Of a DNA stretch of 64,000 nucleotides, positions 1 to 63,560 are shown piece after piece; position 1 is the stretch's first letter; each line of letters opens with the position of its first letter. Under the pieces are notes generated by a model. It was not told the DNA's origin and did not search any database. It saw only the letters and a list, made by a program, of their open reading frames with translations. A program made the position numbers and the translations under genes. The stretch comes from Escherichia phage phiWec188. The DNA is taken from sequence record LC739537.1. One strand, written 5' to 3'.

Positions 1-95
1 AAAATAAAAATTGTTTTGCATAAATCCTTCGAACCCCAAAATGGGGAGTAATCGGCATCTCCTCACTTTTAGTGTAGCACGAAGGTTATGTTAAG

Positions 96-287
96 TCAAC
101 TGGGAATAATCTTATCACGTTTGGTTTCGTAACCTGTCCACTCAAGATCTCCCCAACCCTCATCACCATCCATCAAGTTATCTTCTTCATCGTAAGATGA
201 AATGTTGTAAATTGACTTCGGATTACAAGACATACAATCTTTGATTGGGATGTGGTGCCACTTGCACGGATTCTCGCTGGTACTCAT
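96..287 (-). CDS. hypothetical protein (63 aa)
   Basis: ORF with GAGGAGAT Shine-Dalgarno immediately upstream of ATG on minus strand; divergent from the + strand block. Confidence 0.5.
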   Translation of the reverse strand: MSTSENPCKWHHIPIKDCMSCNPKSIYNISSYDEEDNLMDGDEGWGDLEWTGYETKRDKIIPS

Positions 288-599
288 GTTAATCTCCTCT
301 GTTATCGTGTTCTTGGGATGAACTCTAACATATGTAAGATCTAAAAGTCAACTAATTCTTTTAACTACTAACTAATAATAATTATTTTATTTTTTGTTAG
401 TTAGTTTGTTGATCAGTATAGAGCAGATCTGTTACTATCTAACTGTCTTTAAGATCTTTAAAACCTAAGTCTTTTAGATCGAGCATATACTTAACCAATA
501 AAAACAAGACCTTAACTCGCTGCGCTCGTTAATAGGTTTTTAGGGTATCACATTTCGATAATCAAAGTCAAGACAATTTTTCAAATTATTTTCATTGTG

Positions 600-640
600 C
601 AAAGCTTGTGTTCTTTGGTGTATGTGCTATAGTGAATAAA
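600..640 (+). promoter_or_regulatory. candidate sigma70-like promoter (TTGTGT-N16-TATAGT) upstream of first + strand gene; coordinates approximate
   Basis: -35/-10-like hexamers with 16-nt spacer about 30 nt upstream of RBS of the 664 gene. Confidence 0.25.
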
Positions 641-663
641 CTTAAACAAGAAAGGAGATATAA

Positions 664-876
664 ATGAGTATTGCTAAGACAGCCAATCAACGTATGAAAG
701 AAGGTATCAACCTAACACCACGACCTAAACCTGGAGGTCACTATGTAACACATGCAAAAACTTACTGGGTTGATCAGATAGTCGGTAGTCGTGAAGTAGA
801 TAGTCCAAAAGAGTTCGACCGCCTGTGTTATGGGTATAGCGATATGGAAGACTTCATAGATCGCATTGTGGATTGA
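664..876 (+). CDS. hypothetical protein (70 aa)
   Basis: AAGGAGAT RBS 5 nt upstream of ATG. Confidence 0.55.
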   Translation: MSIAKTANQRMKEGINLTPRPKPGGHYVTHAKTYWVDQIVGSREVDSPKEFDRLCYGYSDMEDFIDRIVD

Positions 877-9321: not shown

Positions 9322-10413
9322 TTGCACAAGTATGTTGACCTAAACACTGTTGTGGTTATCGATTATGACCAAGTGGCTTTCCAAGCAGCTTCTGCTGTAG
9401 AGAAGCGTCGTATATTGGCTAAACATGCAGCCTCCGGTTCCGAAAAAGAATTTGACAATAAGACAGAGTTTTGGGGTAAGAGTAAAACTGAAATTGGTGG
9501 TTGGCTTGGAGCATTGAATGCTAAACGAGAAGAGCAGGGTAAACGTCCTTTCACCAAAGAAGAGTTTGAAATTGTCGATGTGCAGTACGTACCAGACACT
9601 TTGTCACATGCTTTTCAAGCAGCTAAAACAAAAGTTCAAGCGATCTTAAAGCATTTAAGTTTAGAAAAATATTGCGGGGTTATTGGTGTAGGGAAAACCT
9701 TCCGACATGATTTTAAGATGCCTACCGAGTATAAATCTGAACGATCTGACATTAAGCCTTTACAACTATCCGATACCAAAGACTACTTGGTAGAGCAACA
9801 CAATGGGGATGTTGTTACGGTTATCGAAGCCGATGATGAATTAGAGAAGTACGGTTTCCAAGGTTACAAAGATTACAAACGCACAGGAAAATTCTCTTAC
9901 ATCCTGGCGTCAATAGATAAAGACAGCCTATCCACTCCAAGCATCCTCTTTAACTTCTACAAAGAAGACGGTGTATTCAAGAATCCAGATATCATCTTGA
10001 TAGACGAGTCCATCGGAGACTTGTGGATTGTTGAAAAGGGCAAGAAAAAAGAGGTGAAGGGTTGGGGATCTTTCTGGTTGGCCTATCAGATGCTGATGGG
10101 AGATAAAACGGATAGCATCCGTCCTTACCAGGATTTTGGTATTAAGTTTGGAGACGTTTCTTGCTTCAACTTGATATCTGAATGCAAGACCCAAGCTGAA
10201 CTTTTCCAGAAAGTGAAAGATACATTTTATACCTGGTTCCCTGAAGGTGTTAAATTTACATCTTGGGATCGGGAAGCAGTAGAATTAACAACCGATCAAT
10301 GGATCGAGACAATATTCCAACTTGTTTACATGAAGCGTTGGGATAACGATAACACAACTTTTGAGAGTATGCTTCAAGCGTACATTTCACAACAGGAGAC
10401 AATTAATGAGTAA
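9322..10413 (+). CDS. 5'-3' exonuclease / flap endonuclease, T4 RNase H-like (363 aa)
   Basis: N-terminal VVIDYDQVAFQAASA, GKTFRHDF and ILASIDKDSL segments parallel T4 RNase H (LIDFSQIAL, SGYWRRDF, ILIISSDGDF); probable TTG start. Confidence 0.6.
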   Translation: MHKYVDLNTVVVIDYDQVAFQAASAVEKRRILAKHAASGSEKEFDNKTEFWGKSKTEIGGWLGALNAKREEQGKRPFTKEEFEIVDVQYVPDTLSHAFQAAKTKVQAILKHLSLEKYCGVIGVGKTFRHDFKMPTEYKSERSDIKPLQLSDTKDYLVEQHNGDVVTVIEADDELEKYGFQGYKDYKRTGKFSYILASIDKDSLSTPSILFNFYKEDGVFKNPDIILIDESIGDLWIVEKGKKKEVKGWGSFWLAYQMLMGDKTDSIRPYQDFGIKFGDVSCFNLISECKTQAELFQKVKDTFYTWFPEGVKFTSWDREAVELTTDQWIETIFQLVYMKRWDNDNTTFESMLQAYISQQETINE

Positions 10414-61869: not shown

Positions 61870-61932
61870 GAAGCGGGAACTATTCCCGCCCTACGTGGTA
61901 AATATTATCATATTGACGATCCGTGTCAATAG
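61870..61932 (-). promoter_or_regulatory. promoter-leader cassette (TTGACA-N16-TAATAT, CACGTAGGGCGGGAA-TAG-TTCCCGC hairpin)
   Basis: conserved GATCCGTGTCAATAG and CCCTACGTGGTAAATATTATCA elements. Confidence 0.45.
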
Positions 61933-61949
61933 TTTTTTGGAGTTTTTAC

Positions 61950-62351
61950 TTACAGGCCCAAGATAGCCCGTGCATCGTTACGCTGTTTAGTCTCAGTCAT
62001 GATCATATTTAAAATGGTCGGATTAATATAACCTTTCTCCATAGCTTCGCGGACTGGTACATCATAAGCACCGAAACCAGTGCGAACGATACGCACATCA
62101 TTCAGATTAGTGTTATAGATCCCGCCTAAATCAACCGACTGGAAAACGGCATCAACACTATATTCAGTGTTGCCATCGTTGACGTTTTCGATCTCAATGT
62201 TGCGAGACACCGCCCAACGTTTACAGCCTCCAATCAGGTAGCATTGTTCCTTTGTCAGATTACCATTGGAAACCGCATATTTCAGGGCTTCAGCGCCGAA
62301 AGTTTTAGCAATGTTAACAACGTCAGTATAAGAAAGGATCGTAATGTTCAT
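61950..62351 (-). CDS. hypothetical protein (133 aa)
   Basis: GGAG RBS; own promoter cassette. Confidence 0.55.
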   Translation of the reverse strand: MNITILSYTDVVNIAKTFGAEALKYAVSNGNLTKEQCYLIGGCKRWAVSRNIEIENVNDGNTEYSVDAVFQSVDLGGIYNTNLNDVRIVRTGFGAYDVPVREAMEKGYINPTILNMIMTETKQRNDARAILGL

Positions 62352-62369
62352 GGTTATAACTCCAAATGG

Positions 62370-62435
62370 TGAGCGGCACCATTGCCGCCCTACGTGGTAA
62401 ATATTATCACACTGGTGATCTGTGTCAATACTATT
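62370..62435 (-). promoter_or_regulatory. promoter-leader cassette (TTGACA-N16-TAATAT with TG extension, CACGTAGGGCGGCA-ATGG-TGCCGC hairpin)
   Basis: near-identical to cassette at 61.9 kb. Confidence 0.45.
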
Positions 62436-62453
62436 TATTCAATATAAATAAAA

Positions 62454-62669
62454 TTATGATGTGCGCTCAATTATGATAATGGTCTGTGGGATCTCGTTTT
62501 CTGCCACTATCAGGGCTTTTTTCTGCGTGATAGTTATTTTAACACGTTGCAACGATGCGGTAAAGTCTTTCATTTCGTTATGTGCGGACTTGCTGCAATG
62601 CCAGATCTCAGGCTTACCAACTTGTAAGCCGCGTAAAAATTCCGTTTTGCCTGCTTTGTTCGTGAACAT
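62454..62669 (-). CDS. hypothetical protein (71 aa)
   Basis: AAGGTGAAACAA RBS at ATG. Confidence 0.45.
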   Translation of the reverse strand: MFTNKAGKTEFLRGLQVGKPEIWHCSKSAHNEMKDFTASLQRVKITITQKKALIVAENEIPQTIIIIERTS

Positions 62670-62679
62670 TTGTTTCACC

Positions 62680-62784
62680 TTAACCGATACCGTGAGAAGA
62701 TAGGATCATATTAGCCATAGTTGCAACCACTCCAACCGATAACGCCAGGCCAACTATTGCAACCGTGAAAATTTTCTCTAACAT
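62680..62784 (-). CDS. small membrane peptide (34 aa)
   Basis: AAAGAGGGTAGCATC RBS; single TM helix; ORF-track N-terminal extension would overlap promoter cassette. Confidence 0.3.
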   Translation of the reverse strand: MLEKIFTVAIVGLALSVGVVATMANMILSSHGIG

Positions 62785-62867
62785 GATGCTACCCTCTTTA
62801 ATGGGCGTTGCCTTATTGCCCCGCCCTACGTGATACACTTTACCAGAAAACAAAATACTGTCAAGAT

Positions 62868-63005
62868 TTATTTTACTTCCCAAACGGAAAATTCACTACC
62901 TGGCGGGATCATTCTTTTAATCTTGTTTGCTGCTGCTACCAGGTCCACGGCTTGCACTGTAATAATATAACCAATTGTCGAGGCTGTTGCATTGAAAGTT
63001 TTCAT
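62868..63005 (-). CDS. small ORF (45 aa)
   Basis: GGTGAGGGTAATATA RBS; own cassette upstream. Confidence 0.35.
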   Translation of the reverse strand: MKTFNATASTIGYIITVQAVDLVAAANKIKRMIPPGSEFSVWEVK

Positions 63006-63021
63006 TATATTACCCTCACCA

Positions 63022-63075
63022 TCGGCGGCACCATTGCCGCCCTACAAGATGAATACTACGCGCTTACTTTGCTGT
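63022..63075 (-). promoter_or_regulatory. promoter-leader cassette (TTGACA-N17-TAGTAT, TTGTAGGGCGGCA-ATGG-TGCCGCC hairpin)
   Basis: member of repeated cassette family. Confidence 0.4.
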
Positions 63076-63246
63076 TGTCAACAAGGGGCGAAAAAACTTT
63101 TTGATCTGGCTTGCTGTTAGGCGCATATCTGCTTTGAGCGTTGCCAGGCGATAAGCCTTACCCTTAATCAGTTTATGGTGTCCGGTGCCGTTGCCGATGA
63201 TAACATCAATTTCACACAATACACGGGAAGAATCAATCTTTTTCAT
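63064..63246 (-). CDS. hypothetical protein (60 aa)
   Basis: AGAAAGGTAACAAG RBS; GGGGCGACAAGCGCCCC hairpin in leader. Confidence 0.4.
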   Translation of the reverse strand: MKKIDSSRVLCEIDVIIGNGTGHHKLIKGKAYRLATLKADMRLTASQIKKFFRPLLTTAK

Positions 63247-63294
63247 CTTGTTACCTTTCTTGTTATGGGGCGCTTGTCGCCCCTGGTTTATGGT

Positions 63295-63480
63295 TTATTT
63301 GACTATGTGACGATCATTATATTCAGTGTAAAACTCGCAACCATCGTCACGACTATCAAGTTTAACAATGTAACCAGTTTGATAACGTTCAATAGATACC
63401 ATTGCATAAAACTTACCATTCAGGATATTTCTAACCAGATCGCCTTTTACCAATTCTTTCGTTTTCTTGTAAGTAGTCAT
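63295..63480 (-). CDS. hypothetical protein (61 aa)
   Basis: internal ATG; cassette upstream. Confidence 0.45.
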   Translation of the reverse strand: MTTYKKTKELVKGDLVRNILNGKFYAMVSIERYQTGYIVKLDSRDDGCEFYTEYNDRHIVK

Positions 63481-63497
63481 GATGTTTTCTCTTCTGT

Positions 63498-63560
63498 TAG
63501 GCGGGGCGCTTGTCGCCCCTATGTGATACATCTTATCAGGTTGATTCAGCTTGTCAAACT
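63498..63560 (-). promoter_or_regulatory. promoter-leader cassette (TTGACA-N16-TAAGAT, CACATAGGGGCGACAAGCGCCCC hairpin)
   Basis: member of repeated cassette family. Confidence 0.4.

Follow-up and report, generated by a model that had tools for sequence, protein, structure and literature searches.

The non-coding gap at positions 288 to 663 of a 64,000-nucleotide stretch of Escherichia phage phiWec188 (LC739537.1; this whole stretch is called the window) is a control region of an ordinary kind, and is probably, to judge from its sequence, a compound two-way sigma-70 promoter region that contains a conserved promoter-hairpin unit. Host RNA polymerase with sigma-70 would start transcription in both directions from this gap at four interleaved promoters. 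A leftward promoter, P_L2 (351..322), and a rightward one, P_R2 (409-438), would stand back to back, with an A/T-rich tract that carries an inverted repeat as their shared upstream DNA. P_R2 and the second leftward promoter, P_L1 (571..542), would face each other, so that their transcripts would overlap by about 90 nt, while the fourth promoter, P_R1 (606-633), would lie just upstream of the gene that begins at 664. The functionally constrained part appears to be P_L1 plus an invariant hairpin in the 5' leader of the P_L1 transcript, a combination that occurs three times per genome across the subfamily Stephanstirmvirinae.

In this unit, the promoter TTGACT-N15-TGCTACCCT is followed after 13-16 nt by a hairpin whose outer stem covaries and whose invariant core is C-GA-GC-G(N1-2)A-GC-GA-G. 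The unit may represent a regulatory element of the Stephanstirmvirinae that has not been described before, either the binding site of a phage antitermination or RNA-stability factor or the marker of three transcription-primed origins, a proposal whose chances we put slightly below even. The unit is present in 133 genomes and is recorded in no annotation. If it turns out to act in antitermination or as an origin, expression timing or replication initiation in the subfamily would become approachable for the first time, and the unit would also mark sites to avoid or to exploit in phage engineering. The gap as a whole provides a concrete, testable map of expected early transcription starts for this group of phages, whose members are often isolated as therapeutic agents against E. 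coli and Klebsiella. The inverted repeat and the GATC sites to which an earlier sequence-only reading had drawn attention are of little weight in themselves, being part of an ordinary two-way promoter region.

Predicted promoters

The base for all genome-wide counts is the 150.7-kb genome of phage phiWec190 (150,689 bp; LC739539.1), to which bases 1-1,500 of the window are identical, on the reverse strand of that record. The four promoters of the gap are the following.

322..351, minus strand: P_L2, the proximal leftward promoter; -35 box TTGACT at 351..346, extended -10 TGTTAGAGT at 330..322, predicted start near 315
409..438, plus strand: P_R2, the distal rightward promoter; -35 box TTGATC at 409-414, extended -10 TGTTACTAT at 430-438, predicted start near 445
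542..571, minus strand: P_L1, the distal leftward promoter, which belongs to the conserved unit; -35 box TTGACT at 571..566, extended -10 TGATACCCT at 550..542, predicted start near 535
606..633, plus strand: P_R1, the proximal rightward promoter and the weakest call; -35 box TTGTGT at 606-611, TGCTATAGT at 625-633, predicted start near 640

A strict promoter pattern, TTGAC-N followed by 13-15 nt and TGnTAnnnT, has 33 matches in the genome, compared with 1.2 +/- 1.1 in shuffles that preserve local composition, and all but one of the matches (32/33) agree in direction with the surrounding block of genes. Since the pattern is enriched over shuffles and oriented with the genes, it appears to mark real sigma-70 promoters of the extended -10 kind. 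Sequence anatomy, enrichment, orientation, conservation and covariation are direct observations; the firing of each promoter, the position of its start and the role of the hairpin we infer from the sequence. Three strict matches fall within 71-571, all of them leftward (99..71, 351..322 and 571..542); the last two are P_L2 and P_L1. P_R2 fits the pattern once TTGATC is accepted as its -35 box, and P_R1 only with the weak TTGTGT.

Comparison with relatives is consistent with these assignments. The alignment of 14 sequences shows two sequence types, one of which, the phAPEC8 type, has neither the inverted repeat nor the gene at 664-876. In the phAPEC8 type, P_L2 reads TTGATC-N17-TACAGT, and in the distant lineages L066 and L067 the same position reads TTGACTTTAGATCT...TAGAGT. 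P_R2 reads TTGAT(A/C)-N15-TGATACACT in the phAPEC8 type and TTGTTA-N14-TGTTAGTAT in L066; in both, its defining positions are conserved while its free positions vary. P_R1 was read from the sequence and is only partly conserved. The suggestion of divergent promoters in the sequence-only reading thus holds as a prediction, with two leftward and one or two rightward promoters of the sigma-70 type, the consensus positions of which are kept in diverged relatives. The literature yielded no paper on phapecoctavirus start sites, and nothing relevant on the promoter or hairpin strings or on phapecoctavirus promoters or termini.

The arrangement has much in common with the divergent early-promoter regions of lytic coliphages, which are of the extended -10 class, are read by host sigma-70 RNA polymerase and have the same TTGACA-like -35 boxes, 16-18 bp spacing and TGn plus TAnnnT, the same serial promoters before blocks of small genes, and the same A/T-rich, UP-like DNA upstream of the -35 box. 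Its distinctive features are that the two directions are interleaved, with the inner pair P_R2 and P_L1 predicted to fire at each other, and that one promoter has an unusual conserved -10, TACCCT, and a fixed leader hairpin. Face-to-face promoters about 90 bp apart with overlapping 5' transcripts are also found in phages of the P2/186 type, but those are lysis-lysogeny switches with known repressors, whereas the present phage is virulent and no repressor is known.

Elsewhere in the genome, an array of small minus-strand genes at about 61,880-63,560, continuing to about 70.8 kb (genome coordinates), has a near-identical promoter cassette before each gene. The cassette consists of TTGACA-N13-TGATAATAT or TGATAAGAT, followed by a conserved leader that begins with TTACCACGTAGGGCGG.

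The promoter-hairpin unit

The 98-bp block at 506-603, which comprises P_L1 and the hairpin, is the sole stretch of the gap that matches about 65 other phapecoctavirus records (about 82% identity), and it lies outside everything that the sequence-only reading had flagged. A 27-mer within it is identical in 14/14 aligned sequences and unique in the genome. The three copies of the unit in the genome are represented by these features.

506..534, minus strand: invariant core of copy 1, ACCTTAACTCGCTGCGCTCGTTAATAG as read on the plus strand, with the minus-strand hairpin UUAA-C-GA-GC-GCA-GC-GA-G-UUAA
40546..40601, plus strand: copy 2, TTGACT-N14-TGCTACCCT followed by CGAGC-GATA-GCGAG
genome coordinate about 79,220 (L019, about 9400-9470), minus strand of the record: copy 3

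In copy 1, CGAGCGCAGCGAG occupies 528..516 of the hairpin and begins about 7 nt beyond the predicted P_L1 start. Three of the four promoters with a TACCCT -10 have CGAGC-(GCA / GATA / GGGA)-GCGAG 13 nt downstream on the sense strand. Conversely, the genome contains exactly three copies of the motif CGAGC-N3-5-GCGAG (0.26 expected), each of them 13 nt after a promoter of the form TTGACT-N14-15-TG(A/C)TACCCT and on its sense strand. When 121 nt around copy 2 are used as a query, 133 phage records match, most of them at two places, among them Phapecoctavirus, Justusliebigvirus and the Klebsiella and Citrobacter phages of the subfamily. Copy 2 is oriented opposite to its block of minus-strand genes and runs antisense into a leftward gene. 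The next 360 nt or so contain no open reading frame (ORF) with a ribosome-binding site (RBS), and ORFs of at least 35 amino acids appear only from +566, also lacking an RBS. The same arrangement is found in Citrobacter phage Tr1, Klebsiella phage phi1_175008 and ESCO13.

Among 14 distinct hairpin sequences, neither the ten bases of the core nor the G...A ends of the loop vary, while three pairs outside the core covary: the closing pair is AU in six and CG in six, another pair is AU, UA, GU or CG, and the remaining one is UA, UG or CG. The covariation score of 0.356 compares with 0.207 +/- 0.045 in shuffles, was reached by 0/500 of them, and stays at or below 0.17 in slid controls. The structure so defined has two tandem G.A pairs and a G-N-A or G-N-N-A loop on a GC stem. 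Since invariant bases are displayed on a covarying stem, the hairpin would appear to be recognized by a specific partner.

The layout also recurs in diverged lineages, in the order of divergent gene, P_L1 with hairpin, about 100-150 nt, A/T tract, second promoter and leftward gene. The gap in its entirety (about 98% identity) is kept in five phage records, namely phiWec190, phiWec179/181/186 and PsgM04F, and also in one IMG/VR contig and one metagenome contig. Few further lineages came to light when IMG/VR was scanned with the core sequence, the unit pattern and the leftward protein.

Extended homology among the three units was considered and rejected, the similarity downstream not being above shuffles (z 1.4, 2.3 and -0.6); for this reason a shared TGATCAAC...ACTAACTA stretch was dropped. 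The invariant core has no match in 5,426 E. coli genomes. A 21-mer of it, TTAACTCGCTGCGCTCGTTAA, is also found in a few contigs from unrelated bacteria, at the tip of hairpins that are longer and whose lower stems covary; there it belongs to repeated intergenic elements (for example in six contigs of one metagenome, an Ignavibacterium metagenome-assembled genome and one of the PVC group). In the Ignavibacterium genome it adjoins a tRNA gene beside a duplicated tRNA 3' end. Rfam gives nothing at the hairpin in nine unrelated loci with the 21-mer, and its presence in unrelated bacteria is probably convergence on a very stable hairpin.

A possible RNA leader signal

The preferred explanation of the hairpin is that it acts in RNA, as a leader signal to which a specific protein would bind, stabilizing or anti-terminating the transcript. 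It would then work like a nut site, or like a stabilizing 5' hairpin, on selected transcripts. Even though this is the most likely of the mechanisms considered, on its own it is a tentative assignment, somewhat more apt to be wrong than right.

The boxB hairpins of lambda nut sites, which follow shortly after an early promoter and are bound by an antiterminator, are alike in being small hairpins with an invariant top and a G...A loop that lie just downstream of specific promoters, in having few copies per genome, and in leaving the lower stem free to covary. The present hairpin differs in having no boxA on the sense strand, in its stem with tandem G.A pairs, in its loops of 3-4 nt instead of 5, and in its position at about +7 instead of tens of bases farther on; no N-like protein has been identified. 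The string CGCTCGTTAA may resemble boxA, but it occurs on the opposite strand only. CGAGCGCAGCGAG may likewise resemble a stretch near the primosome assembly site of pBR322.

Several observations weigh against this account of the gap and its hairpin. All promoters and start sites in the gap are predictions. P_R2 comes from a relaxed scan with 30 matches in the genome and 8.1 in shuffles, so that about one match in four would be due to chance. P_R1 has a weak -35 box, and its -10 in the phAPEC8 type is TATA(G/A)C, which does not have the final T. A 12-mer present in three copies in the gap, described below, is not accounted for. In nearest-neighbour folding, two of the three hairpin copies are not above shuffles (z -0.3 and -0.4), and the support for the hairpin is comparative, not energetic. 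Finally, most loops are of the three-base G-N-A form, which with the GC stem gives GCGAAGC or GCGCAGC. These strings are the hallmark of the very stable DNA mini-hairpins of the d(GCGNAGC) family, not of RNA tetraloops, and a role at the DNA level would fit them better.

A possible transcription-primed origin

Such a role is found in a second explanation, in which the three units would be three replication origins, as in T4. The P_L1 transcript would stay hybridized to its template, the displaced sense strand would fold into the hairpin, and the A/T-rich tract at 352-408 would unwind; if this were true, the tract would be the unwinding element of one of the three origins. This explanation is unlikely, although it accounts for several features. 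The hairpin is strand-specific, always being on the sense strand of a strong promoter, and its G-N-A or G-N-N-A loops on a GC stem flanked by tandem G.A pairs correspond to the d(GCGNAGC) mini-hairpins. Tracts of 88-100% A/T (over 40 nt) lie 55-145 nt past the hairpin at copy 1 in three lineages and at some other copies. At copy 1 here, the tract of 90% A+T lies 116-155 nt past the hairpin, and the sequence downstream of P_L1 is the most A/T-rich of the 32 strict promoter matches scored. Copy 2, which opposes its gene block in several genera and is followed by the long interval lacking an ORF with an RBS, is also easily accommodated.

Against an origin, positions 1-1000 contain no DnaA box with at most one mismatch, and the single oriC-like 13-mer here (GATCTnTTnTTTT type) is one of 112 in the genome and is not repeated. 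Copies 2 and 3 in phiWec190 have no strongly A/T-rich tract (0.70-0.72), and the phage nieznany carries a variant from which 66 bp of the A/T tract are missing. Cumulative GC skew has a minimum here but also at 77.4 kb, and it was rejected as an origin marker because it follows gene direction only. The T4 oriF and oriG, the T7 primary origin and ColE1 similarly have a promoter followed by an A/T-rich tract, and T4 has several such sites per genome. In the present case, by comparison, the tract is not adjacent to the promoter, being 125-180 nt downstream, and two of the three units do not have one. A replication landmark had been one of the proposals of the sequence-only reading. In its favour is the series of conserved promoter, very stable sense-strand hairpin and A/T tract, which resembles transcription-primed origins; DnaA boxes and repeated 13-mers are absent. 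The proposal keeps a low probability.

The inverted repeat and the A/T-rich tract

The tract and the repeat within it are as follows.

352..408, no strand assigned: A/T-rich tract between the -35 boxes of P_L2 and P_R2, containing the inverted repeat
367-375 and 397-405: the perfect arms of the inverted repeat, ACTAACTAA and TTAGTTAGT

The sequence-only reading was correct in placing an inverted repeat in non-coding DNA at 288-663, but its details need revision: the perfect arms are 9 bp, not 10, the tenth base being unpaired, and the 21-nt spacer is all A/T but for one G; the count of GATC sites also changes. Imperfect arms of 18 nt (367-384 and 388-405) are 83% complementary. As a single strand the repeat has a folding energy of -7.5 kcal/mol (z = -4.95 against local shuffles). 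The genome has 18 perfect inverted repeats of at least 9 bp with a loop of 3-30 nt, compared with 11-24 in shuffled genomes, so this one is unexceptional genome-wide. The repeat does not look like a terminator either, for its stem is A/U, its loop is 21 nt long and a U run is absent on both strands, and a scan of 1-1200 found no intrinsic terminator.

The tract has 90% A+T in its best 40-nt window, the highest value downstream of the 32 strict matches, and its A/T-rich character is kept in relatives even though the sequence itself is not. The 9-bp repeat is confined to the phiWec190 lineage, where it occurs in 5/70 phage records as well as in one IMG/VR contig and one metagenome contig. Its absence from related phages had been named beforehand as evidence against a function, and it is absent from most of them. 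The operator-like palindrome of the sequence-only reading is therefore not supported, since it is found in one lineage only, lies in the A/T spacer between back-to-back -35 boxes and does not stand out in the genome.

The record of nieznany (MN850598.1) is linearized inside the homologous gap, and its two ends overlap by about 210 bp. In one of the end copies, 66 bp are missing from the A/T-rich tract and the P_R2 region, which points to a deletion variant in the sequenced stock; the deleted part may be dispensable.

The three-copy 12-mer and the GATC sites

The 12-mer GATCTWAAAGWC has its only copies in the genome in the gap.

338-349, plus strand: first copy of the 12-mer
445-456, minus strand: second copy
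469-480, minus strand: third copy

Three copies in 150.7 kb, all within 338-480, are beyond chance (0.1 expected), with the reservation that the motif was defined post hoc. The triplet may be a set of operators for a lineage-specific factor, or it may be the relic of an inverted duplication of the P_L2 core. As an operator array, it would bind a phage protein, perhaps the 70-amino-acid product of gene 664-876, and shut P_L2 and P_R2. The positions would suit occlusion, since one site overlaps the -35 box and spacer of P_L2 and the other two lie at about +1 to +36 of P_R2. Only the phiWec190 lineage has the full set of three, and only it has gene 664-876; the phAPEC8 type has a different short repeat in the equivalent interval (AGTACNG, with 8-10 GTAC). 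Besides the post hoc definition, it counts against an array that the copy at 338 is the P_L2 core itself, which is conserved in a distant lineage that does not have the other two copies (L066/L067 have a version one base shorter), that those two may be relics of local inverted duplication (repeats I3 and I6), and that the 70-amino-acid product yields neither a protein family nor a homologue from any other lineage. An operator array is accordingly doubtful, with roughly one chance in seven.

In the phAPEC8-type relatives the 8-10 GTAC sites, including a run of AGTACNG repeats, fall within 250 bp homologous to 290-510; their entire 5.1-kb locus has 14-16. GTAC is under-represented (0.57-fold) in the phiWec190 window.

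The gap holds five GATC sites (338, 411, 426, 453 and 477), not the four of the sequence-only reading, which missed 411 and misplaced 453 as 462; its count of three AGATCT sites (337, 425 and 452) is right, and a fourth AGATCT, at 145, is inside a gene. Copies of the 12-mer account for 3/5 of the GATC sites. GATC 411 lies in the -35 box of P_R2, 338 and 426 lie in the spacers of P_L2 and P_R2 (as AGATCT 337-342 and 425-430, respectively), 453 (AGATCT 452) lies at about +8, among the first transcribed bases of the predicted P_R2 transcript, and 477 lies inside the third copy of the 12-mer, about 30 nt into that transcript. The genome has 844 GATC sites, a 1.66-fold over-representation. Clusters of five within 139 bp occur six times per genome, and with random placement 99.6% of trials contain at least one. 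For AGATCT, a group of three within 115 bp is borderline (P = 0.10), and a group of four within 307 bp has P = 0.034. The clustering is mostly incidental, a by-product of a GATC-rich genome and a locally repeated 12-mer. Two other GATC clusters, at 42.3 kb and 63.6 kb, were considered as promoter-linked and rejected, both being inside coding sequence.

A switch sensitive to Dam methylation, in which the methylation of GATC would set protein binding or promoter strength in both directions, was one of the proposals of the sequence-only reading and is improbable. In its favour are the positions of 411, 338, 426 and 453 within or next to promoter elements, the recurrence of TTGATC -35 boxes and AGATCT 452 in the phAPEC8 type, and the presence of TTGACTTTAGATCT in L066/L067 and AGATCTGTTA in L106. 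The cluster, however, is not beyond chance (six equal or tighter ones per genome, P = 0.996) in a genome where GATC is over-represented throughout, and the set of sites differs among lineages. The full set of five is found only in the phiWec190 lineage and the phAPEC8 type has 2-4, even though sites 338, 411, 426 and 453 each recur singly in some other lineage. No regulator motif spanning pairs of GATC was identified, no dedicated scan for OxyR, Lrp or SeqA having been made. Mu mom, IS10 pIN, pap and agn43 likewise have GATC inside or beside promoter elements; the gap differs from them in that its clustering is within chance, its site set is not conserved and, again in the absence of a dedicated scan, no site of the OxyR or Lrp type was identified. 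At individual promoters methylation may have an effect, given that GATC or AGATCT recurs in the -35 boxes or spacers of other lineages.

A packaging site or physical genome end, also suggested by the sequence-only reading, is very improbable and gained no support: the nieznany record (MN850598) is linearized inside the gap, but its overlapping ends differ by the 66-bp deletion and suggest that the assembly broke at a polymorphic site, the cut in the phiWec190 record is at another place (149-bp overlap), other records are cut at many places, and the published description mentions terminal repeats without placing them at the gap (PMC12695924).

Flanking genes and related records

The gap (376 bp) is confirmed as non-coding between two small genes.

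96..287, minus strand: first leftward gene, 63 amino acids, phrog_26411, with RBS GGAGA at 297..293 and no function assigned
664..876, plus strand: first rightward gene, 70 amino acids, an orphan of the phiWec190 lineage, not present in phAPEC8-type relatives

In the annotated record, the leftward block consists of three small genes, about 11 tRNA genes and then larger genes, while the rightward block contains dozens of small genes. PHROGs and Pfam give no functional assignment for any flanking protein, and the 70-amino-acid protein has no family match and no homologue beyond the phiWec190 lineage. Its gene resembles an insertion between P_R1 and a conserved stretch, GAGGTAAGGTGATTTATC, which in phAPEC8 sits directly upstream of the orthologue of gene 949-1275.

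A hidden RNA gene or small ORF in the gap was rejected, there being no Rfam support and no ORF common to both sequence types. The Rfam scan of 1-1000 (E up to 1) gave one chance-level match (E = 0.45), and no tRNA-like match was found in the gap. The small coding sequences annotated over the gap in PsgM04F look spurious.

The record LC739539.1 differs from the window by an indel of about 857 bp within the last 21 kb of the window (beyond 42,912), and its first 149 bp recur at the end of the record as an assembly overlap. The phage phiWec190 belongs to the Stephanstirmvirinae and is filed under Phapecoctavirus; a new genus, 'Wecvirus', has been proposed for it (PMC12695924).

CTAG is absent from the 64-kb window, where base composition predicts about 236 sites, and from the entire 150,689-bp genome, an absence that the paper describing these phages does not mention (PMC12695924). 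Fragments of other members of the lineage (phiWec179, PsgM04F, one IMG/VR contig and one metagenome contig) have no CTAG either, while phAPEC8-type phages, Justusliebigvirus and other relatives have 1.1-3.3 CTAG per kb. Since the tetranucleotide is missing here and present at such densities in relatives, the phiWec190 lineage appears to have purged it. PsgM04F (OR584014.1), deposited as a Pseudomonas phage infecting Pseudomonas coronafaciens, has 98.7% identity to the first 1.5 kb of the window. Because it is nearly identical to this coliphage and shares both the tRNA cluster and the absence of CTAG, its host assignment looks doubtful.

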